A DNA stretch of 64,000 nt from NCBI GenBank assembly GCA_963707635.1, contig OY970173.1, positions 2,912,001 to 2,976,000 of the forward strand. The letters run 5' to 3'. Origin of the DNA: Candidatus Latescibacterota bacterium. GTDB lineage: Bacteria > Krumholzibacteriota > Krumholzibacteriia > WVZY01 > JAKEHA01. The position numbers were made by a program, and so were the translations under genes. The notes below the pieces were generated by a model, which was not told where the DNA came from, ran no database searches, and saw only the letters and a list, made by a program, of their open reading frames with translations. Positions 1-11,303 of this stretch are shown here, one piece after another; position 1 is the first letter of the stretch; each line of letters opens with the position of its first letter.

Positions 1-3000
1 ATGCGCACCAGGTGCTTGTCTCCCGGGCGTTCCCACCGGTACTCGTAGCCGCCGTCGACGAAATACGACCCCGGCCGGCGCGCGCCCAGGCCCGCGGACA
101 GCGATAGGTATTCTTCGTCTTCGCGACCGGAGAGCGAGGTAAACGTCTCGAAGCCGAGAGTCGCGCTAGTCGCCGGTCCCAGCCGGAGCCTCTGCCGAAT
201 CCCGCTCACCGCACCCATGCGCGCGTCGTCCGCCGCGCGGTCCATCGCGTAGCGCGTGTAGGCCTGGGTGCCGCCGGGCGTGGTTCCTTCGACCCCGGCC
301 GTAATCTGATTGGTCGAGGGGCGGCCGCCCGCCGTGAGGTACTCGTGTGTCGCGATGGCGCGAACGCGCTTCGCGAGCGGCACTGCCAACACGGTCTTCA
401 AGCGGTTCGGGTAGTCGTCGACCACCTGGTCGCCCACGTTCTGCTCCCATGTGGTGGAGATCCCGGCGGTGCCGCGATTGCCGACGGTGATGCCGGTGAG
501 CACCAGGACTCCGTTCGCATCCTGCTGCGGCTCGTCGTGGCGCGCGAAGCGCAGCCCGGCCGACATCTCCAGCAAACGCCGGCGATAGTCGAGCGTGGCC
601 CGGGCGGTCTCGCGCTTTTCGTCGGTGCGCTGGAGTTCGTGCGTGTAGCCGTCGGCATTGAGCGCGAGCGACGGGGACAGGGCGAGGCGGCCGTCGAAGC
701 CCGCCTTGAGGCTCGCGAGCTCGCTGTCCGCCCCGCGGAACGACGGATTCACGAAGCCACCGTCGACGCGCCGCAGGTACATGTCGAGCTTGGAGGCCCC
801 GCGTTGCGCGCCGGCGCCGACCTTGTACGCGTTGCCGTTGCCCGTGAGGTCGTCTTCGCTGTGCGCGAACTCGCCGCTGAATCGAGCGGCGCCCAGACGC
901 GCGTCCCCGTCCACACCGAAGAGCGAGTAGCCGGGCGTGTCGCCCCCGTTCGCCACTGCGGTCACGCCGGCGCGATATCGGCTCCCCTGCACGACGTCGC
1001 CGCGCATGCCGTACAGGTACGCGCCGCTCACACCGGTCTCGGTCTCGTAGGTCACGGCAACGAAATTCGGGTTGAGCTCGCGGTCGGTCACCGCCACCGG
1101 CTCCATGAAGAGAATCGAGCCGTCGTAGGGGTTGATCGTGTAATCGCGCCGGCGAATCATGACCCGGGCCTCGAGGACTTCTTCCGTCTGGTAGCGATCG
1201 CGCGTCTCGACGATCACGCGCTCCGAGTTCTCGACGATCGGGGCGCTCGACAGGTAGTAGAACCCGCTGGTGCCGTCGGCGGGCATCTCGTCGGTGCGCG
1301 TGACGAAATCGGTTTCGGTCACGAACGCGCGCACGCTGTTCGCCCCGCTGGTGAGCGAAGCCGACAACCCCGTCACCACCTGGTGGTAGGTGAGAAACTC
1401 CCCGCGATCGATCGGGGTGGTGAAGTCGCCGTAGCGCAGGTACGATTGTTCGCGGTCGATCGACACGTAGTTGCCGCCGCGCGCGGGCGCGGCGTAGTGC
1501 ACCGACGACGCGTCGCCGTAGATCGGATACTGCTTCTCCGGATCGGGTTGCTTGAGCAACGGGTCGTCGTAACGCTTCTTGGTGTCGAGCCGGGCGGTGA
1601 CCTGGACCCCGCCCGGCGCGGCCCCCTGGACGAAGAGGCGCGACTCGGCTTCCACGTCGAAGCCATCGTGGTAGTTCGCCACCCCCTGCCCGCTGCCGTC
1701 GCCGCGCGTGTCGTACGCACCCATGGTGACGTCGACGATGCCGTCGGCCAGAAACGGACGCTCGGGGTTGACGAATACGACCTCCGTCTCCGCCCGCATT
1801 CCGTCCATCTCCACCGCCACCCGCCCACCGCCGGTCGCGTGCCGTGGCTTCAGGACCAGATTCACGATTCCCTCGCTGGTGGTCGCCTGCAGCCCGCGCT
1901 CGTCGGGCCGCGCGTCCGCGAGCGCGACCAGGTCCGCGCCCTCCGCGACCGTGACGACGATGCCGTCCATCACCGGCAGCCCGAACCCGTCGCGCACCGC
2001 GAAACGCAACGTGGTCGCGGTGTGGCCGTCCGCCGGAACCAGCGCGCGCGCGTCGAGCGGCACGAGCTCCGCCGGTTTCGACGAAAGCGCGACCCGCACG
2101 CTGTCGGACGCCTCGCCTCCGCGCAGCATGGTGGCGTGCGCGATCAGGTCATTCCAACCCGCGCGCACCCGCACGCCGAACCAGGTCGTGGTCTCTTCCT
2201 GGTGCGCGACGTCCACCGTGTGCTGCCCGACGCGGTCCTCGCCGACCAGTTCGTCGTTGACGCGCAACTCCACGCGGCTCCCGAGCGGATGGCGGACACG
2301 CACTGCCACCTGGTCCCGATCCCGCACGACCAAGCCGTCGTTCGGTTCGAGGATGGTGACGAGGCTGGCAGCCCCGGGTGGCGCCGGAGCGGGGTCCCCG
2401 GCGGGGACCAGGGCGATCTTCGCCGGGGCCGCGATTTCGGTCCACGAGAGCGCGTCGAACACCGCGCCCGGCGCGATCGCCGCGGTGCGCACGCCGGGTC
2501 GGACGACGGTCGTGTGCACGGAGCCCGAGTCGCCCGCCGCGGAATCGACCAGGGCAATCGCCGCGGTGACGTCGCGAACCAGGTGCGTATCCGGAGTCGC
2601 CGCGGTGAATGCGACCTGGCAATCGATGGCCCGTCCGCGTCTGAGCGACTCGAAGCTGAAGACGCCGCCGTCGGATGGCAGCGGGACCCGGTCGAGAAGC
2701 GCGCTGACGGTCACGTCCCCGAGCCCTTGCGGAACCTCGACCCGGAGGGTGCCGCGCTGGGTGTGTTCCGAGGTGGTGGTGAATCTCCAGCGCACGGTGG
2801 TGCGCGAGGAATCCGGCAACACCGAGAGATCGCGGACCGCGTGGCCGACGCGCAGCGTCGGGTCCGCGCCGTCGGCGGATGGCGGAATGAAACTCACCTC
2901 GACGCGGCGGTTGAAGCTGCGCCCGTCAGGCGTACCGTTGCCCGCCACCGGCCGGGTGTCCCCGTAACCGCGCACGACGATCCGGTCTCCGTCCACCCCC

Positions 3001-5138
3001 ATCGCGACGAGGGCGTCGCGCACCGCTTCGGCGCGCGCCACCGACAGCTCGTAGTTCGACGGGAAACGCCTGCTGCGCATCGGCGTGTTGTCGGTGTGGC
3101 CTTCGACCAGAGCCGCCCAGCCCGGACGGTCGAGCAGAAAGGCCGCCACCGGTCGCAGCCCCCGGTCCGCACCGACGACCAGCGACGCCTGGCCGAAGTC
3201 GAACTGCGAGCTTGGCAGCGTGAACTCGCCGAGCCGCACCCGTCGCGCGACGCTGACCCGCTCTTCGCACGCGAGCAGCGCGGTACGCGTGAGCGGCGGC
3301 ACCACCGGTTTGCGCAGCGGGAAGGCGACGCGCGCGTGGGCCGGAGCGATCAGGTGCACGAGACGCTCGTTGGGCCGGGGGGCGTGGCCGTCGCCCACAG
3401 CGGGTTCCACCAGTTCGACGCCGGCCGGGAGCGTTCCCTCGTCGAGGCGCACCAGGCGGTAGCCCTCGAACACGTGCGGAATCGAGAAGACTCCCAGCGA
3501 GTCGGTCACCGCGTACTCGCCGCTCTCGAGGTAGACCGAGACGTTCCCCACCCCGGGCTCGCCGGGGTCGCGGTCCCCGTCGCCGTCGTCGTCGATCCAC
3601 ACGTCACCGAGCAGAAAGCCCTCGATGCCAACTTCCTCGTTGTCGATGCGAATGGCGGCGACCACCGGCGCCGTTTCGACCGGATCGCCGGTCACTGCGC
3701 TGCCACGCGCCACCCCCGACACGCTGGCCCAGCCGTTGGGCTCGCGGCTGTTCACCGCGAACTTGACCGAGGTGGTGCGCGTCTCGCCGGGAGCCAGCGA
3801 CCCGACGGCCCACGAGAGCTGGTTCCCCGACCACGCCACCCCGCCCCCGGAGAGAAAATCGAGCGCCGGCGGCACCGACTCGGCGACGCGCACGTTGTCG
3901 ACGCGGATCGAGTCGGTGCGGTTGGTCGCGGTAACCACCATGGTCACGACGTCGCCCAACGACGCGGTCGCCTGCCGGAACGTCTGCTCGAGGCCGATCA
4001 TCGTGCGCGGATCGGGCACCGCCGCCAGGGCGAGCCGGCACGTCGTCCGGTTCGTGACCAGCGTGTCGAGGCGCGACTGCGCGGTGAAATCGAACGCGCG
4101 TATCGCGCCGAGCGCTGTGCGCAGCGGCGTCCCCGGGCTCGACACGACGAGGCGAAGCGACTTGATCTCTCCGGGCGCGAACGCGCCCACCAGGAACTTC
4201 CCGGGTTGCGGAGCCGGCGGGAACGGCACCCCGTTCACGTCCGTGCACACGACGCCGACGCCCGGCGGAAACGCGGCGGACGCGAATACCACCACGCTGT
4301 CGGCGTCGCCGGCGTTCTCGATGTCACCCGCGAAGGTCACGGTGTCATCCAGCACGCCGATGCCGACGGTTGACGCGTCGTCGGGCGATCCCTCGCCCCC
4401 GGGCAACGCGCGCGGGTTTCCCGCCGGCCCGAAGAACACCGCGGACACGAGCGCGCGACTGGTCACACGCACCACGGTCGCATCCGTCACGGGGGCCTGC
4501 GGCGCGAAAGCGGCGGCCGCGACACCGGGATCCCACGCGGAGGTCGCGCGCAGCTCGACGTACGCATCTCCCGCCGGGGCGGGCAGCACGAGTGCGACAT
4601 CCACCGGTGTCGAGAGACCCGCGCCGACCACGAGGAACGACGGGTTGTCTTCGCCCGCATCCAGCCGCCCATTCGCGTTGGCATCGCGGAAGAAGATCAC
4701 CGTCGCGGGCGAGATGGTCGAGGGTGGGAGACTCGTGGTCGACATCGCGACCGAGTCGGGCGCGTTGCCGAGGTTGTCGAGCGACAGCCGGCAGTAGACC
4801 GTATCGAACGGAGCCGCCTGCAGCGCGTACGCGGGCGTTGCCACCGTTCCCGGCGGAGTGATACGCAGGCCAAAGATCGTGAGTACGGGCGTGGAGACGG
4901 TGTTCGAGCCCGTCGCATTCACGTTCCCGGTGTCGGTGAAGACCGTCTGGGCGGTGTTCCGGATGTCGGTACCGCCGGGTGTGACCTGAGCGTGTGCGGG
5001 TTTCGAAGGCCAAAAAGCCAGCACGAACAGCAGCGCGAACAAGACGTAACGCGTTGCAGAAAAACGAAAAACGGCGAGTCCCCCCGCCGCGTTTACTGCC
5101 CGCCGCCAGTCGAAATTCTGCCGCGCTAGAGCCTTCAT
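1..5138 (-). CDS. Very large outer-membrane protein (>=1712 aa, 3' end outside window): signal peptide, N-terminal TPGGTDIRNTA extension, Ig/DUF11-like domains, SdrD-B-like domain, OmpA-C peptidoglycan-binding domain, C-terminal putative beta-barrel
   Basis: Hand translation from ATG 5138 (MKALARQNF...FALLFVLAFWPSKPAHA-QVTPGGTDIRNTA); the frame is still open at position 3 (...KHLVR). Motifs: GDVWIDDDGDGDRDPGEPGV (SdrD-B-like), VEGHTDN...SNYELSVARAEAV...GYGDTRP...NRRVEV (OmpA-C), YPIYGDAS...YGDF and alternating beta-strand patterns downstream. Absent from the ORF track because there is no stop; the + strand ORF 345..4373 is its antisense shadow. Start codon uncertain. Confidence 0.85.
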   Translation of the reverse strand, partial: MKALARQNFDWRRAVNAAGGLAVFRFSATRYVLFALLFVLAFWPSKPAHAQVTPGGTDIRNTAQTVFTDTGNVNATGSNTVSTPVLTIFGLRITPPGTVATPAYALQAAPFDTVYCRLSLDNLGNAPDSVAMSTTSLPPSTISPATVIFFRDANANGRLDAGEDNPSFLVVGAGLSTPVDVALVLPAPAGDAYVELRATSAWDPGVAAAAFAPQAPVTDATVVRVTSRALVSAVFFGPAGNPRALPGGEGSPDDASTVGIGVLDDTVTFAGDIENAGDADSVVVFASAAFPPGVGVVCTDVNGVPFPPAPQPGKFLVGAFAPGEIKSLRLVVSSPGTPLRTALGAIRAFDFTAQSRLDTLVTNRTTCRLALAAVPDPRTMIGLEQTFRQATASLGDVVTMVVTATNRTDSIRVDNVRVAESVPPALDFLSGGGVAWSGNQLSWAVGSLAPGETRTTSVKFAVNSREPNGWASVSGVARGSAVTGDPVETAPVVAAIRIDNEEVGIEGFLLGDVWIDDDGDGDRDPGEPGVGNVSVYLESGEYAVTDSLGVFSIPHVFEGYRLVRLDEGTLPAGVELVEPAVGDGHAPRPNERLVHLIAPAHARVAFPLRKPVVPPLTRTALLACEERVSVARRVRLGEFTLPSSQFDFGQASLVVGADRGLRPVAAFLLDRPGWAALVEGHTDNTPMRSRRFPSNYELSVARAEAVRDALVAMGVDGDRIVVRGYGDTRPVAGNGTPDGRSFNRRVEVSFIPPSADGADPTLRVGHAVRDLSVLPDSSRTTVRWRFTTTSEHTQRGTLRVEVPQGLGDVTVSALLDRVPLPSDGGVFSFESLRRGRAIDCQVAFTAATPDTHLVRDVTAAIALVDSAAGDSGSVHTTVVRPGVRTAAIAPGAVFDALSWTEIAAPAKIALVPAGDPAPAPPGAASLVTILEPNDGLVVRDRDQVAVRVRHPLGSRVELRVNDELVGEDRVGQHTVDVAHQEETTTWFGVRVRAGWNDLIAHATMLRGGEASDSVRVALSSKPAELVPLDARALVPADGHTATTLRFAVRDGFGLPVMDGIVVTVAEGADLVALADARPDERGLQATTSEGIVNLVLKPRHATGGGRVAVEMDGMRAETEVVFVNPERPFLADGIVDVTMGAYDTRGDGSGQGVANYHDGFDVEAESRLFVQGAAPGGVQVTARLDTKKRYDDPLLKQPDPEKQYPIYGDASSVHYAAPARGGNYVSIDREQSYLRYGDFTTPIDRGEFLTYHQVVTGLSASLTSGANSVRAFVTETDFVTRTDEMPADGTSGFYYLSSAPIVENSERVIVETRDRYQTEEVLEARVMIRRRDYTINPYDGSILFMEPVAVTDRELNPNFVAVTYETETGVSGAYLYGMRGDVVQGSRYRAGVTAVANGGDTPGYSLFGVDGDARLGAARFSGEFAHSEDDLTGNGNAYKVGAGAQRGASKLDMYLRRVDGGFVNPSFRGADSELASLKAGFDGRLALSPSLALNADGYTHELQRTDEKRETARATLDYRRRLLEMSAGLRFARHDEPQQDANGVLVLTGITVGNRGTAGISTTWEQNVGDQVVDDYPNRLKTVLAVPLAKRVRAIATHEYLTAGGRPSTNQITAGVEGTTPGGTQAYTRYAMDRAADDARMGAVSGIRQRLRLGPATSATLGFETFTSLSGREDEEYLSLSAGLGARRPGSYFVDGGYEYRWERPGDKHLVR

Positions 5139-5152
5139 CGCATATAACACGT

Positions 5153-5205
5153 TCGGCCGGCGCACGCGGGGGAGCCGTGTGGGCTCCACCCGCATGCGCG
5201 GCCGA
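5153..5205 (-). terminator. Strong intergenic stem-loop between the fibre-subunit gene and the outer-membrane protein gene
   Basis: Pairings tcggcc/ggccga, gcgca/tgcgc, gcggg/cccgc and ggagcc/ggctcc around a 5-nt loop; the C/A mismatch becomes a G-U pair in the minus-strand RNA. No clear U-tail, so it may be a stabiliser or attenuator. Confidence 0.55.
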
Positions 5206-5234: not shown

Positions 5235-7935
5235 CTACTGAATCCGGACTGTGAACCCGACCCCGGAGGTCGAGCTCGCACCGGCCAGGAGACTCCCCGT
5301 GAACACCCAGCGCACGTTGGTCACGTTCGCGTCGTATCCCGCCGGAGCTCCCCCGCCGCCGCTCGCCGGCGCGTAGGTCCAGGTGGCTCCGCTGTCGTCG
5401 GAATACTCGATCGCGATGGCGGTGACCGACGCCGGCGCCGTGCCGCTCGTCGCCGAACCCACCTGGAATTGCGTCCAGGTCGGAACCGCGTCGTAGATGG
5501 CGATCGTCGTGAGCGTCGAGCTGCCGAGGTTCTGGTAGTCCACGGTGTATGCGAGATCGGTCCCCGGCGCCTGAGCGCCCGCCGGGCTCACCGCCTTCGT
5601 CAACACCAGGTTGCCCGCCACGATGGTCGTGACGTCGGTGGCGTTGTCGGAGGCGAGGGTGACCTGACCGGTCGCCGTGAGCACCCCGATCTCGACCGTC
5701 CCCACCGTCGCCCCGGCCGGCACCGTGAGGCGCGCGGTCACGCTCGCACTCGCGCCCGGCGCGAGAGTCACGCTCGAAATCGGCGTGCTCGTCACGTCGA
5801 GGAACACGTAGCTCCAGCCCTGCGAGGAGACGTAGGTCAGGTCGAAGGTGTCACCGACATTGCCGTTGTTGGTCACCGTGTGCGCATACGTGATGGTCCC
5901 GCCGGCGGTGGTGTTGCCCGCGTTGTCGGGGTCGAAGAGCACCGACGCCAGCGTGTTCACCGTCACCGTGTTGGCGATGGTGTCGCTTTGCGTCGCGTTG
6001 ACCGTCGACGTGGCCGTAAACGAGGTTCCGTTGACGCCCGGCGCGGTGCCCGCGGGCACCGCCACGCGCGCGATGAGGTTGGTCTCGGCTCCGGAAGCAA
6101 CCACACCCGTCGAGGTGATCGGCGACACTTCGCCGGCGTCGAGGATGCCGTTGCCGTTCGCGTCGAGATAGAACACGACCGTCCAACCCGCGGGGACGGA
6201 CGAGGACAGCGTGAAGTTGTCGCTCGAACCGCCGCCGTTGATCACGTCGAGCGCGAAGTCGACCGACGCGCCCGGGTTGGTGTTCTGATTCACCGACGCG
6301 TTGTTGGTGGTTCCCGCCGCGCCGTCATAGTTGCCGATGTCCACCGTCGCGGGCAGTACCGCGTCGATGCGATCGGTGGTCAGGTTGTCCTCGGCCGGGG
6401 TGTTCGCGGACTGCGCGCGCACCACGGCGGCGAACGGGCCACCGGCCCCCTGCGAACCGGGAATGACCACCCGCACGACGATGTCGATCGACGCTCCCGT
6501 CGCGAGCGGGCCCACGTCGACGTTGCCGTCGAAGTCGGAATCCGAAAGCGGCGTGATGCCGTCATTGTGATAGAACAGCACCGACCACGAGCCGGGCACC
6601 GTCGACGAGCCATCGAGCACCACGTTGACCGCGTCGTTCGTGTTGCCGTCGTTGCGAATCGTGTTGGTGAAGTCGACCGACGTGTTGGCGTACGCGCTGG
6701 CGACACTCTGCAGGTCGTCGTCGTAGTTCGGCGGCGTTCCGGCGTCGGGGACGCCGGCCGGGCCGATCACCACTCCCGCGAGGATGCCGACGGTCACCGG
6801 CGCGTTGTTCGACGTGACGATGGTCGGGTTCGGCGTCACCACGTTGTTGTCGACGTAGGCCAGCGCCGCGGTGTTGTTCAACACGCCCGGCGTCATCCCC
6901 GCGACCACCGTGACCTGGTACGAGAACGAGTAGCTCTGCCCCGGCACGATGGCGCCGTTGGTCACGTACGCCACCGCGATGTCGCCGAAACCCGCCGCCA
7001 GCGACCAGTTCCACGTCTCAGGGCTCCCGGCGGTCGAGCTTCCGCTGGGCAGGTACAGGACCGTCCCGCCCGCGGGCGAGCCCGTCGGCGCCCCGAAGAC
7101 CGGGAGTGGATTGCCCGAGCCCGGATTCAGCGGGATCACGTCGTACATCAGAACACCCGTGAGGGCGACCGACCCGACGGTGACGCCGTTGGCGTTGTTG
7201 GTTCCGGAGTTCGATGCCCGTGAAGGTGTAGCTGATCTGGTCGCCGTCGTAGACCAGCGCGGGGGCACCCGTGAGGTTGGCCGTCATGACGGCGTCGTCC
7301 ACCACCGTGGTGCGGTGGTAGTTGCGCGTATCGATCTGACCCGCGTCACCCACGGACGTGCCCTGCACGCCGACGTAGGCGAGCTGGCCCGCGGTCGCGG
7401 TGCCCGGCACCGCGTAGGTGACGATAAGGCTCACCGACGTGCTGGCCGCGACCGGACCGAGGACGCCCGGTACCCCGCCGACGCTGATCGCCGGCTCGCC
7501 GCCGTCGACCACGCCGTTGCCGTTGATGTCGTGATAGATCGACACGTTCGCCAGCGCGATGGTCATGGTCGTGTTGACCGCATCGACCAGCGGCGCCAGC
7601 GTGTAGCTGTCGTTGTCGTTACCGGTGTTGGTGAGCGTATAGCTGTAGAACAGCGTCTGTCCGCCGATCGCGTTCTGGCTCATCGCCGGCGTGACCGGTG
7701 GCGTCTCTCCCGAATCGTCGGGAAGGATCGAGATGCCGTAGACCGGCAGCACCACTGTAATGACTTCGTTCGAAAGCGCGGTGTAGCTGTTGCCGACCAG
7801 GTCCTCGTAGGTCGCGGACGCGCGATTGCGAATCTGCGTCCCCGCCGGCGTCGTCTGCGCGAACGCAGCCGCCACGGAGAGCACGAGCACGAGGGTCAGG
7901 ACGAGCGGGAGGATCAGAAGGTGTCTGGTTTTCAT
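5235..7935 (-). CDS. Secreted multi-Ig-domain DUF11 (conserved repeat domain) protein, ~899 aa after correcting a +1 frameshift at 7217-7219; candidate fibre subunit
   Basis: ORFs 7018..7935 (signal peptide MKTRHLLILPLVLTLVLVLSVAAAFA-QTTPAGTQIRNRASATY) and 5235..7268 join as ...QISYTFT(A)SNSGTNN... if one G of ACGGGCA is removed. Repeated Y/FxxTxxNxGNxxDxxxL modules, DxNGNGxxDxGE Ca-binding-type loops, two DUF11-like domains. SD AGGAGG overlaps the upstream stop codon. Confidence 0.85.
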
Positions 7936-7947
7936 CTTCGGTTCCTC

Positions 7948-8433
7948 CTACTTGACCGTGGCCCGGTACGAGAACGTGATCTCGTCTTCGGGCTTCAGGC
8001 CGCCGGACAGCGTCCAGCGAATGTGGGTGATCATGTCCGGCGTCGCGTCCGCCCAGACCTCACGACCGTCGGCCGCCGCTTTCTTGAAGCGAACGGGCCA
8101 GGCGTGGAAGGTCTTGCCGCTGTCGATGCTGAACTGCACCGAACCTGCAGCCGGAGCCTTCGCGGTCTTTTCGACGTACTGGACGCCGGCGGGAACCGGG
8201 TCGACGATTGACACGTTGTGGACGGCCTCGGCGCCACCGTTGGCGTACGTCAGCCGGTATTCGATGACGTCCTGCGGACGGGCTTCGTCTGCAGGCAGGT
8301 AGACTTCCTCGCCGCGCTCGCCGACGATGACCTTCCGGGCTTCGATGGTGCCCGTGACAGGACCGGCGGCAGTGGCAGCGAGCGACGTGATCAGTCCGCC
8401 AACAAGGGCGAACAGGAAGAAAACGCGACGCAA
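7948..8433 (-). CDS. Small secreted single DUF11-like domain protein (161 aa), C-terminally truncated domain
   Basis: TTG start at 8433 with AGGAGG 7 nt upstream; signal peptide; PQDVIEYRLTYANGG...VSIVDPVPAGVQYV...THIRWTL...FSYRATVK-stop. Confidence 0.85.
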   Translation of the reverse strand: MRRVFFLFALVGGLITSLAATAAGPVTGTIEARKVIVGERGEEVYLPADEARPQDVIEYRLTYANGGAEAVHNVSIVDPVPAGVQYVEKTAKAPAAGSVQFSIDSGKTFHAWPVRFKKAAADGREVWADATPDMITHIRWTLSGGLKPEDEITFSYRATVK

Positions 8434-8845
8434 GGTGGAACCTCCTGAGTATCGAGAAGCCCACGCATCGGCGCGGGCGCACTCCTCCCATGCAAACCCG
8501 CGCGTCGGGCGCAGGCGCAACTTCTCGCGGGAGCCCGGGGGCAAGGGACGTTCCAGTCGTGGCCGGAAAGGGCGGGATGTTCCCGATGGAAGCGGATGAG
8601 GGAGGAATGTGGCGTCGCGGCGCGGCTTACGCGCGGTGACGGAGTGGCCGTCGGTGCCGCCACCGGGCGCATGACGGACTATCGCGCCCGCGAATGGTTG
8701 TCACTCCGCAATGCGGGCGCAGGGGGCCTTGCAATGTGCAATTCTTCCCAGTCGGGGGTGGCGCGCCAGGTGAGTCGGGACCAGCACGTCGTTCTCCGAG
8801 GAGCGCCGGGGGTCAACCTACAATATTCTAACGGCTTATGAATTG

Positions 8846-8875
8846 TTGAAAATTATACATAGCCTGTCCTATATT
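8846..8875 (+). promoter_or_regulatory. Sigma70-like promoter for the two-component operon
   Basis: TTGAAA-N18-TATATT in an AT-rich patch; ATG 8882 follows 6 nt after the -10 box. Confidence 0.5.
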
Positions 8876-8881
8876 CTGCAC

Positions 8882-9961
8882 ATGCCGGGCTCGCCTTCCA
8901 AACGCTGGCAGGTGGTCACACTCGTGGTGATCGGCGCCGCCACCGTATCGTTCCACTACGGCTTCTTGCTCCCTCGATCCATCGGGCATGGCAGCCTCGT
9001 CCACGTCATCCACGGGCGCCTGTGTTATGTGCCCATCATTCTGGCGGCGATCTGGTTCGGGGTACGAGGCGGACTCGCGCTTTCGCTCTCGATCACGGCG
9101 CTCACCCTGCCCTACCCGCGCCTGCGCGGGATTACCGACCACCACACGTTGATCGGCGAATACACCGAAATGGTGTTCTACGTGGCGATCGGCCTGATGA
9201 CCGGTGTCCTGATCGAACGCCAGTGGCGCGAGCGGGCGCGCGGCGAAGCCCTCCAGCGCGAGCTCGCGCGCCGCGAGCGCCTCTCGTCGCTCGGGCAGAT
9301 GGCCGCCGGCCTCGCGCACGAGATCAAGAATCCGCTCGGGTCCATCCAGGGCGCGGCCGAGATTCTGGGCGACGACGCGCCGGCCGATTCCCGCAGGCGG
9401 GAGCTGTTCGAGATCCTGCGCAAGGAATCGAAGCGGCTCGGGACCGTGGTCGACGACTTTCTCACCTTCGCGCGCCCGCGTCCGCTGTCGCTCTCTCCGC
9501 TCGACCTCGGTGCGGTGGCGGAGCGCGCCGCCGCGCAGATGAACATCGACGCCTCCGCGCGCGGCATCACCATCGAGCTCCAGCGCGCGCCCGACCTGCC
9601 CCGGGTGGCCGGCGACACCGAGCGGCTCCACCAGGTATTCTTGAATCTGCTCTTGAACGCGCTCGCCACCAGCGCGGACGGGGGCCGGGTGGTGGTGTCC
9701 TCGTTTCCCGCCGAGCGCGACGGCGCCGCGTGCGCCGCCGTGTCGGTGCGCGATTTTGGCTCCGGCATTGCGCCCGACGCACTCCCGCGCGTGTTCGACC
9801 CGTTCTTCACCACGCGGGAAAACGGGGTCGGCCTGGGCCTCTCGATATCGCACACCATTGTGCAGGAACACGGCGGCTGGATCGACGTCGACAGCGCGCC
9901 GGGTGCCGGCACCACGGTCACCGTCGTCCTCCCCGTCGATCGCACTCGCCATGGCGCATAG
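8882..9961 (+). CDS. Membrane sensor histidine kinase (NtrB/ZraS-like)
   Basis: Several TM helices, H-box LAHEIKNPL, N-box QVFLNLLLNA, DFGSGI, FDPFFTT, GVGLGL. Confidence 0.9.
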   Translation: MPGSPSKRWQVVTLVVIGAATVSFHYGFLLPRSIGHGSLVHVIHGRLCYVPIILAAIWFGVRGGLALSLSITALTLPYPRLRGITDHHTLIGEYTEMVFYVAIGLMTGVLIERQWRERARGEALQRELARRERLSSLGQMAAGLAHEIKNPLGSIQGAAEILGDDAPADSRRRELFEILRKESKRLGTVVDDFLTFARPRPLSLSPLDLGAVAERAAAQMNIDASARGITIELQRAPDLPRVAGDTERLHQVFLNLLLNALATSADGGRVVVSSFPAERDGAACAAVSVRDFGSGIAPDALPRVFDPFFTTRENGVGLGLSISHTIVQEHGGWIDVDSAPGAGTTVTVVLPVDRTRHGA

Positions 9962-11303
9962 TCGCATCCTGCTCGTGGATGACGACGAGAGCATCCGCAA
10001 GGTCCTCGGCTATATGCTCGAGGAGGCCGGCTACGCGGTCGAGTCCGCGCCGGGAGCCGACGCCGGGCTGCGACTCGCGGCCGAGCGGCGCCCCGACCTG
10101 GTCTTGAGCGACATCAAGATGCCGGGCAAGGACGGGCTCGAGCTGTTGCGCGAGCTCCGGGCTTTCGATCCGTCGATCCCGGTGATCATCCTCACCGCGT
10201 TCGGCACGGTGGGGACCGCCGTCGAGGCGATGAAGCACGGCGCGTCCGACTACCTCACCAAACCGATCGCGCGCGACGATCTATTGCTGACGGTGGCGAA
10301 GACGCTCAAGCTCCACCGCCTCGAGGCGGAAAACGAGGATCTGCGGGAGACGCTCCGCGACCGCTTCCGCTTCGAGAGCATGGTCGGGCTTTCGCCGGCG
10401 ATGACAGAGGTGTTCGCCACGCTGCGCAAGGTGGCGACCACCGAAGCCACCGTGCTAATTACCGGAGAGAGCGGGACGGGCAAAGAGCTCATCGCGCGCG
10501 CGATCCATTTCAACAGCCCGCGGCGCTCGCAGCGCATGGTCACGATCAACTGTGCCGCGATTCCGCACGACCTGCTCGAGAGCGAGCTGTTCGGTCACGT
10601 GCGCGGGTCGTTTACCGGCGCGATTCGTGACAAAGTCGGCAAGTTCGAACAGGCGCACGGCGGCACGCTCTTTCTCGACGAGATCGGGGCCACGCCGCTG
10701 GTGCTGCAGGTGAAGCTGCTGCGCGCCCTGCAGGAGCGGGAGGTCGAGCGGGTTGGCGGCGACGCGCCCATCCAGGTCGACGTGCGCATCGTCGCCGCCA
10801 CCAATCGGGCGCTGGCGACGCTGGTCGCCGCGGGCGAATTTCGCGAGGACCTCTTCTACCGGCTCAACGTCGTGCCGGTCCGGGTGCCGCCGCTGCGCGA
10901 GCGCGCGGGCGACCTCCCGCTCCTGGTCCGCCACTTCCTGGCGAAGTTCGCCGACGGCAAGGTCACCCTGACCCCGGAGGCGCTCGCGGCCCTCGAGCGT
11001 TATCGCTGGCCGGGGAACGTCCGCGAGCTGGAGAACTTCTGCGAGCGCATGGCGCTGATGCGCTCCCGCGACGTCATCGACGCCGCAGCCGTCGCCGCCG
11101 AGCTGGCGACGCTGGAGCGCGAGGCTCCGGCGGCGATCGGAGCCACCCTGCACGAAATCGAGCGCACCGCCATCGTCGAGGCGCTGCGCGCCAGCGGCTG
11201 GAATCGGTCCCGCGCCGCCCGCCGGCTCGGCGTCGCGCGCCACATCCTGCTCTACCGCATGAAGAAGTTCGACATTCGCGACGAGGGCGAGTCGGTGCGT
11301 TGA
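9951..11303 (+). CDS. Sigma54-dependent response regulator (NtrC/ZraR family; REC-AAA+-HTH)
   Basis: ILLVDDD...DIKMPG receiver; [32 protein letters not shown]-terminal Fis-type HTH. Confidence 0.95.

Follow-up and report, generated by a model that had tools for sequence, protein, structure and literature searches.

In the Elr (WxL) pilus of Enterococcus faecalis, an acceptor-only tip (ElrA), a shaft (ElrD) and a donor-only base (ElrB) have been described, the role of ElrB being itself a prediction (bioRxiv 10.64898/2026.10.17.759780). A similar layout is seen in the operon considered here, which lies on the minus strand of a 64,000-nucleotide stretch of DNA from a Candidatus Latescibacterota bacterium (contig OY970173.1, positions 2,912,001 to 2,976,000; hereafter the window, whose coordinates are used throughout) and encodes a putative surface fibre that is apparently undescribed. 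We propose, with a probability of about 0.6, that the large outer-membrane barrel protein of this operon is the donor-only base unit of a head-to-tail donor-strand surface fibre. As in the Elr pilus, there would be an acceptor-only tip, a shaft with both donor and acceptor, and a donor-only base bearing the envelope anchor. Unlike the Elr pilus, which is Gram-positive, has the WxL fold, and uses a single strand, a sortase/LPxTG anchor and a membrane chaperone, the base here is a 1900-aa OmpA/barrel protein and the links are predicted isopeptides. The operon proteins gave no WxL or LPxTG match, apart from a weak WxLIP_PGBD match on an internal shaft domain (15.2 bits against a cut-off of 27.3), and the combination of WxL domains, LPxTG base and DUF916 chaperone that defines an Elr/WxL pilus was not found in them.

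In the case of chaperone-usher pili (FimH/FimA/FimI, FimC, FimD), incomplete immunoglobulin (Ig) domains are completed by the N-terminus of the next subunit, and the system includes a tip adhesin and an outer-membrane barrel (PMC11001860). The likeness to the operon lies in incomplete Ig domains, here with predicted completion by a neighbour's N-terminus, a candidate tip and a predicted outer-membrane barrel, whereas the chaperone-usher pili there described are terminated by a separate subunit (FimI/PapH) and have non-covalent links. The four operon proteins gave DUF11-type and related Ig matches only, with no PapD-like chaperone or chaperone-usher pilin among them. A further precedent is Clostridium perfringens BsaA, of the TasA family, in which an isopeptide forms spontaneously between Asn and Lys, with an acidic residue as catalyst, and locks the donor-strand exchange (N35, K74, E56; bioRxiv 10.1101/2024.11.04.621531). 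An Asn-Lys lock with an acid is likewise predicted here on a donor-strand joint, but BsaA has a TasA-type fold, a SipW operon and no barrel, and its available text mentions neither DUF11 nor OmpA; the operon proteins, in turn, showed no TasA-family match, nor the pairing of a TasA domain with a SipW signal peptidase. The domain that appears to be used here is the CLIPPER/DUF11 domain 9IFR, a fibrillar-adhesin domain with a Lys-715, Asp-748, Asn-806 triad, whose bond the available main text describes as intramolecular only and without the word 'donor' (PMC12617251). The fold and the Lys/Asp/Asn triad are the same in the operon, where the domain would be divided between two chains. The thread filament of Sulfolobus is said, in the titles of the reports on it (among them PMC9715654), to combine donor-strand complementation with isopeptide bonds, but it is archaeal and lacks an outer-membrane barrel. 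The Pam pilus of candidate phyla radiation (CPR) bacteria was set aside, as it is reported to be exclusive to CPR (PMC13278184).

The operon would work like Elr in its layout, like BsaA in its predicted lock and like the chaperone-usher systems in its need for a barrel, but it appears to belong to none of them, as no WxL, TasA, PapD or usher family match was obtained. No description of it was found in a literature search whose scope left out most subscription papers, and the supplements of PMC12617251 (Table S2, Fig. S7) may list such proteins. New here are the examination of the idea in this phylum and the finding that Asn changed to Ser repeatedly, in the donor of the barrel only.

Donor peptide of the barrel protein

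The operon comprises four co-oriented genes, for a small DUF11 protein (8544-7948), the shaft (7935-5235), the barrel protein (from 5195) and, just left of the window, a protein of 1320 aa that starts within the stop of the barrel gene. Judged by sequence, the shaft carries a donor and an acceptor, the barrel protein a donor only, and the 1320-aa protein (the tip candidate) and the small protein an acceptor only; no donors other than those of shaft and barrel are found in the operon. The barrel protein is encoded by a 1936-aa open reading frame (ORF; written 5195 to 3) that extends 615 nt past the window edge. After its signal peptide it opens with a 37-aa peptide homologous to the shaft N-terminus, followed by two subunit-like Ig domains (D1 and D2).

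This likeness had been claimed in a preliminary description of the same DNA, made from its letters alone, and it withstood closer comparison. The strings quoted there all lie on the minus-strand ORF, the peptide following AHA at residue 70 (4988) with Asn80 at 4958-4956; LDNLGNAPDSV (4781-4749), FRDANANGRLDAGED (4691-4647) and VFFGPAGNP (4439-4413) in the barrel protein have as shaft counterparts LTNTGNDNDSY (7635-7603), YHDINGNGVVDGGEP (7536-7492) and VVIGPAGVP (6773-6747), and GLEQTF lies at 3995-3978. Pairwise alignment of barrel and shaft scored 69 for the peptide (shuffled 22.4+/-4.6), 176 for peptide plus D1 (39.8+/-6.6) and 83 for D2 (37.4+/-7.0), values reached by none of 1000 shuffles in any of the three cases, and profile-profile comparison gave probabilities of 99.0 for the peptide, 99.3 for D1 against shaft D1 and 99.3 for D2 against shaft D3. 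A donor hidden Markov model (HMM) built from subunits only, 92 of whose 111 training rows were gammaproteobacterial, gave the barrel peptide 4.9 bits (E 23), under two chance matches among the 15,035 ORFs of the genome. The peptide is thus clear by pairwise and lineage-matched comparison, not by the generic profile.

The peptide is also predicted to stand apart from the domains that follow it. An AlphaFold2 (AF2) model of residues 70-530 (predicted local distance difference test, pLDDT, 91; predicted template-modelling score, pTM, 0.59) shows strands 8-34 forming a hairpin, after which come three distinct Ig domains. By this prediction the first domain is complete without the peptide; folding of the peptide within that domain is the outcome that the preliminary description had named as fatal to its idea. 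Foldseek with this N-terminal model returned generic Ig chains only. The barrel's own DUF11 domain (Pfam match at residues 402-485, 38.6 bits against a cut-off of 24.6) covers the whole of 9IFR (Z 12.9, root-mean-square deviation 2.7, 116 of 123 residues aligned) as a complete CnaA-like fold; it was said to have Gln in place of the Lys, and indeed Gln, Glu and Ser stand where intact CLIPPER domains have Lys, Asp and Asn. As this domain is complete, and D1 resembles the internal shaft domain D4, which has no preceding hairpin (probability 98), the peptide has no evident home in its own chain.

Comparison across lineages speaks to the same point. The peptide forms the mature N-terminus of distant barrels as well: among the 88 that reach 1450 aa or more, out of 137 new representatives at 50% identity, a strict motif with Asn was called in 52 (shuffles 0.9%), another residue in eight, and 28 were uncalled. 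The check on orthologues that the preliminary description had proposed therefore came out in favour of conservation, with 19/19 aligned, 35/35 in further operons and 52/88 in the distant set. At 79 proteobacterial loci, called with the subunit-trained HMM plus motif, the N-terminal region was present in 64 of 81 barrel ORFs, with Asn in 51, Ser in one and 12 missed. D1 directly follows the donor in only 16 of 67 donor-bearing representatives and an unrelated domain in the other 51 (the HMM behind these counts was partly trained on the same proteins, and they are not independent); a C-terminal acceptor was seen in none of the 88 distant barrels. This portability, with the hairpin kept whatever domain follows, is a stronger argument than the AF2 model against folding in cis. 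The same counts bear on the idea that the peptide is a relic of a fusion of the 5' part of a subunit gene to a barrel, folding on its own domains or lacking a partner. D1 and D2 are clearly shaft-derived, the DUF11 domain without its triad shows that relics exist in this protein and the monomer model gives the hairpin an ordered structure with high confidence, but the peptide persists before unrelated domains and keeps its Asn in most lineages, and we consider this origin very improbable.

Open acceptors of the operon

The acceptor side of the joint is found at the C-terminus of the shaft, whose last domain aligns to positions 3-98 of the 134-aa intact CLIPPER domain (probability 98.3) and then stops, in agreement with the earlier claim that the subunit's C-terminal domain is open. 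The reference profile was built from 156 intact domains of distant barrels (Lys in 146, Asp in 148, Asn in 148), and the piece of about 36 residues absent from the shaft acceptor is the one that holds the isopeptide Asn. All 89 rows compared have both the Lys and the Asp of the shaft acceptor, and the donor Asn of the shaft is present in all 112 N-complete homologues among 120; the shaft has, accordingly, the layout of a lock in which Asn stands on the donor and Lys plus an acid on the acceptor. The consensus of the missing CLIPPER piece and the donors (37 aa in the barrel) share a G-x-x-I/V-x-N-x-A...S-N pattern. The small protein also stops at CLIPPER position 98, and the 1320-aa protein has the same open C-terminal domain, which carries both Lys and Asp in each of the 13 rows listed, and no N-terminal donor. 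Significant acceptor matches among the genome's ORFs numbered three only, all in this operon. Sequence searches of the PDB with shaft profiles returned nothing meaningful.

The tip-like protein (G000:C1:2907426-2911385) has an N-terminal domain with a weak NTTRR-F1 match, many Ig repeats and the C-terminal open acceptor, and its gene overlaps the barrel gene in a TGATG suggestive of translational coupling; at one related locus (L035) a 423-aa protein takes its place. In operons with two subunits (L079:7095-8114, L089:7183-8166, L100:7125-8147, L169:8813-9901), the first sometimes has Ser or Gly where the Asn of the donor would stand, which would fit a donor left unused or capped at the distal end.

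The asparagine of the donor and the proposed base of the fibre

The Asn highlighted in the preliminary description is present in this genome, which is of the Asn type, but it is not generally conserved: Ser, Gly or Ala replaces it in about half of the phylum's orthologues, through at least four changes. Among the 71 of 104 close barrel homologues that could be scored (the 33 left out are mostly truncated), the residue is Asn in 38, Ser in 28, Gly in three and Ala in two, and a quick tree of 73 barrels, with long branches flagged, gave the figure of at least four Asn changes. In three sister families (f5, f8 and f9; 35 loci, from 40 regions fetched after exclusion of three same-genus and two f3 regions) the barrel has Ser in 31, Ala in two, Gly in two and Asn in none, and the shafts keep Asn, Lys and Asp in all 34 recovered. 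Because Asn is replaced in many orthologues, a covalent lock at the base would be optional; the hairpin is kept even where an isopeptide is impossible, which would make docking the conserved function and the lock lineage-dependent. Entire sister families have Ser in a hairpin that is otherwise retained, and docking would accordingly not require Asn80.

In the arrangement that we favour, the lowest shaft subunit would receive the barrel protein's N-terminal hairpin in its open C-terminal CLIPPER domain, and the fibre would thereby be tethered to the predicted outer-membrane pore, with a chain order of tip <- shaft(n) <- barrel. Shaft-shaft joints would be sealed by spontaneous Lys-Asn isopeptides, catalysed by Asp in the manner of intact CLIPPER domains, and Asn80 in this organism could be locked likewise. 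The arm may enter the wide barrel last of all, pulled in behind the fibre, with the OmpA-like domain holding the wall; the end state is identical whether the hairpin primes or terminates the polymer. The attachment suggested in the preliminary description, by insertion of this N-terminus into the open domain of the last subunit, is to that extent partly supported.

The predicted pore itself is formed by the C-terminal 791 residues, modelled as a barrel (pLDDT 85.6, pTM 0.80) of about 39 long strands by our own count, with a small plug-like beta domain inserted after strand 8. An usher has 24 strands and is not known to carry a donor strand. The closest structural neighbours are all membrane barrels and none is near (best TM 0.26), no usher being among the matches listed in that search; a second fold search gave SlpA (Z 14.5), FimD (Z 12.6, root-mean-square deviation 6.9, 313 aligned) and PapC (Z 12.4), the ushers ranking among porins, and no usher model was among the Pfam or NCBIfam matches. 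The nearest ESM Atlas clusters are unnamed or labelled 'outer membrane protein', and the family counts 2146 clusters at 50% identity (E <= 0.001). OmpA-like domains bind peptidoglycan, through the Asp of a GHTD and the Arg of an RRV motif, which are retained in 64 of 72 homologues; the domain is missing from several distant barrels. As it sits between the arm and the barrel, the simplest supposition is that the arm begins in the periplasm; it would reach the outside only by threading through the pore.

This location is also what a different role would call for, in which the hairpin is a transient holding strand: in the periplasm it would fill the open groove of the subunit that arrived last, until the donor of the following subunit took its place, the barrel protein being usher and chaperone at once. 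The plug-like domain and the repeated loss of Asn to small residues, with the hairpin pattern kept, are what a reversible decoy would favour; Asn is kept, however, in 51 of 52 called gammaproteobacterial barrels and in most distant ones, and with the shaft Lys and Asp intact, locking rather than exchange is expected. We regard such a role as unlikely. The partner of the hairpin might instead be the small open-acceptor protein, or the tip directly, capping it until assembly or permanently. The small protein is cut at the same CLIPPER position and is an operon member in both lineages. In most cases another residue replaces the catalytic Asp, as would suit a reversible cap (Gly in 31 of 33 from the three sister families, Asn in 38 of 44 gammaproteobacterial ones). 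A covariation between barrel Asn and small-protein Lys, hinted at by 19 operons, vanished in 35 more, where the Lys is kept in 32 of 33 with no Asn (its register in the CLIPPER alignment being uncertain), and capping would be compatible with later binding to the shaft; such a partnership seems decidedly improbable.

Several observations count against a base unit docked on the shaft. Of the 71 close homologues scored, 33 lack the Asn, as do all 35 loci of the sister families. The resemblance between the donor and the CLIPPER C-terminal strands is statistically weak (hhalign probability 1.7, out of register; median 3.8 against 0.5 bits). The hairpin has a pLDDT of 83-91 in the monomer model, and packing against D1 is possible. 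An unshielded high-affinity donor in the periplasm could halt the polymer after a single subunit, and no shielding control was identified. Finally, no large acceptor-only tip was found within 10 kb at the gammaproteobacterial loci.

On a broader view, to which we give an even chance, the operon would represent a widespread, undescribed class of diderm pilus whose secretion pore also forms one end of the polymer, as its first or its last link: the hairpin of an about 39-stranded barrel would complete the basal CLIPPER domain, by a covalent bond in most lineages and reversibly where Ser is present, and one protein would serve as pore, base subunit and cell-wall anchor. A fibre could in this way stay attached to the cell with no need of a sortase, a lipid anchor or a separate terminator, as the pore itself would supply the missing strands. 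If true, donor and acceptor would make a natural peptide-domain ligation pair with built-in reversible variants, and the natural Asn/Ser variants would show directly whether the link at the base has to be covalent.

Feature coordinates and genomic context

Table 1. Operon features located in the window, ordered along the minus strand (residue numbers are those of the respective protein)
Feature	Position	Strand	Basis or remark
Small secreted open-acceptor DUF11 protein, no donor	7948..8544	-	candidate non-covalent cap or chaperone
Shaft subunit gene, split 7935-7018 + 7268-5235	5235..7935	-	about 898 aa in relatives
Shaft donor hairpin (27-63), Asn37 at 7827-7825	7747..7857	-	sequence comparison
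Shaft C-terminal open acceptor, Lys 5597-5595, Asp 5492-5490	5238..5621	-	ends where donor-like strands would start
Strong RNA stem-loop between shaft stop and barrel gene	5155..5202	-	free energy (dG) -42 kcal/mol, z -4.8
Barrel start and signal peptide ending AHA (1-69)	4989..5195	-	hydrophobic stretch at residues 40-61
Barrel donor hairpin (70-106), Asn80 at 4958-4956 (AAC)	4878..4988	-	sequence comparison, AF2
Barrel Ig-like D1 (107-250)	4446..4877	-	hhalign probability 99.3 to shaft D1, 98.0 to internal shaft D4; AF2
Barrel Ig-like D2 (251-391)	4023..4445	-	hhalign probability 99.3 to shaft D3
Barrel's own complete DUF11/CLIPPER domain (392-520)	3636..4022	-	Pfam PF01345, E 1.5e-9; 9IFR fold match
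SdrD_B-like domain (530-584)	3444..3608	-	weak Pfam match, under cut-off
OmpA-like peptidoglycan-binding domain (665-770; Pfam match 665-763)	2886..3203	-	PF00691, E 1.4e-16
C-terminal beta-barrel (1146-1936)	1..1760	-	structure prediction; runs 615 nt beyond the window

In this genome the shaft gene is interrupted within a short run of G, at about 7214-7216, where the frame shifts by one base. In 18 relatives the shaft is a single ORF of about 900 aa with no frameshift, and contigs of related strains that span 7214-7216 lack one base there in all four runs (three samples). The frameshift is likely an assembly error, a strain-specific mutation being the alternative. As for the barrel gene, close homologues begin 50-70 aa ahead of the donor peptide, and the true start here may be the ATG at 5138, which would give an extended signal peptide of about 50 aa. 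Leaders of 50-80 residues are found on the barrels of this genus and on many gammaproteobacterial ones, possibly as extended signal peptides or as start-call artefacts. A terminator-like site at 5090-5071 was discarded as no better than chance (3 found against 2.2+/-1.6).

The order small protein, shaft, barrel was found again in 18 of 20 fetched regions of relatives, and the N-terminal profile was matched by 87 of 208 genomes of the phylum; the close homologues of the barrel protein carry the names Candidatus Krumholzibacteria or Latescibacterota. A locus search with a five-protein alignment returned nearly exclusively metagenome-assembled genomes of Gammaproteobacteria/Pseudomonadota, and no relative was found in the viral contigs searched. 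Two loci of family f3 in the same phylum (L168, L169) have a short two-domain version of the operon, of gammaproteobacterial type, and in another family of the class a 6790-aa open frame with OmpA-like and barrel-like matches (L049, G037:C4:5000-24999) is possibly a fused fibre-plus-barrel form. The flanking ORFs encode a histidine kinase/sigma-54 regulator pair and a protein resembling phosphoenolpyruvate carboxykinase. The kinase and the sigma-54 response regulator (8843-11303, plus strand) are divergent from the operon and could regulate it.

Unequal amounts of subunit message have a precedent in the pap operon. An intergenic RNA hairpin follows the shaft stop in every one of the 19 operons compared, with z between -2.7 and -7.6 against 25 shuffles per operon, and by analogy it would fit more shaft than barrel message and many shafts per barrel. 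Its structure appears conserved and its sequence is variable; it is a candidate mRNA stabiliser or attenuator.

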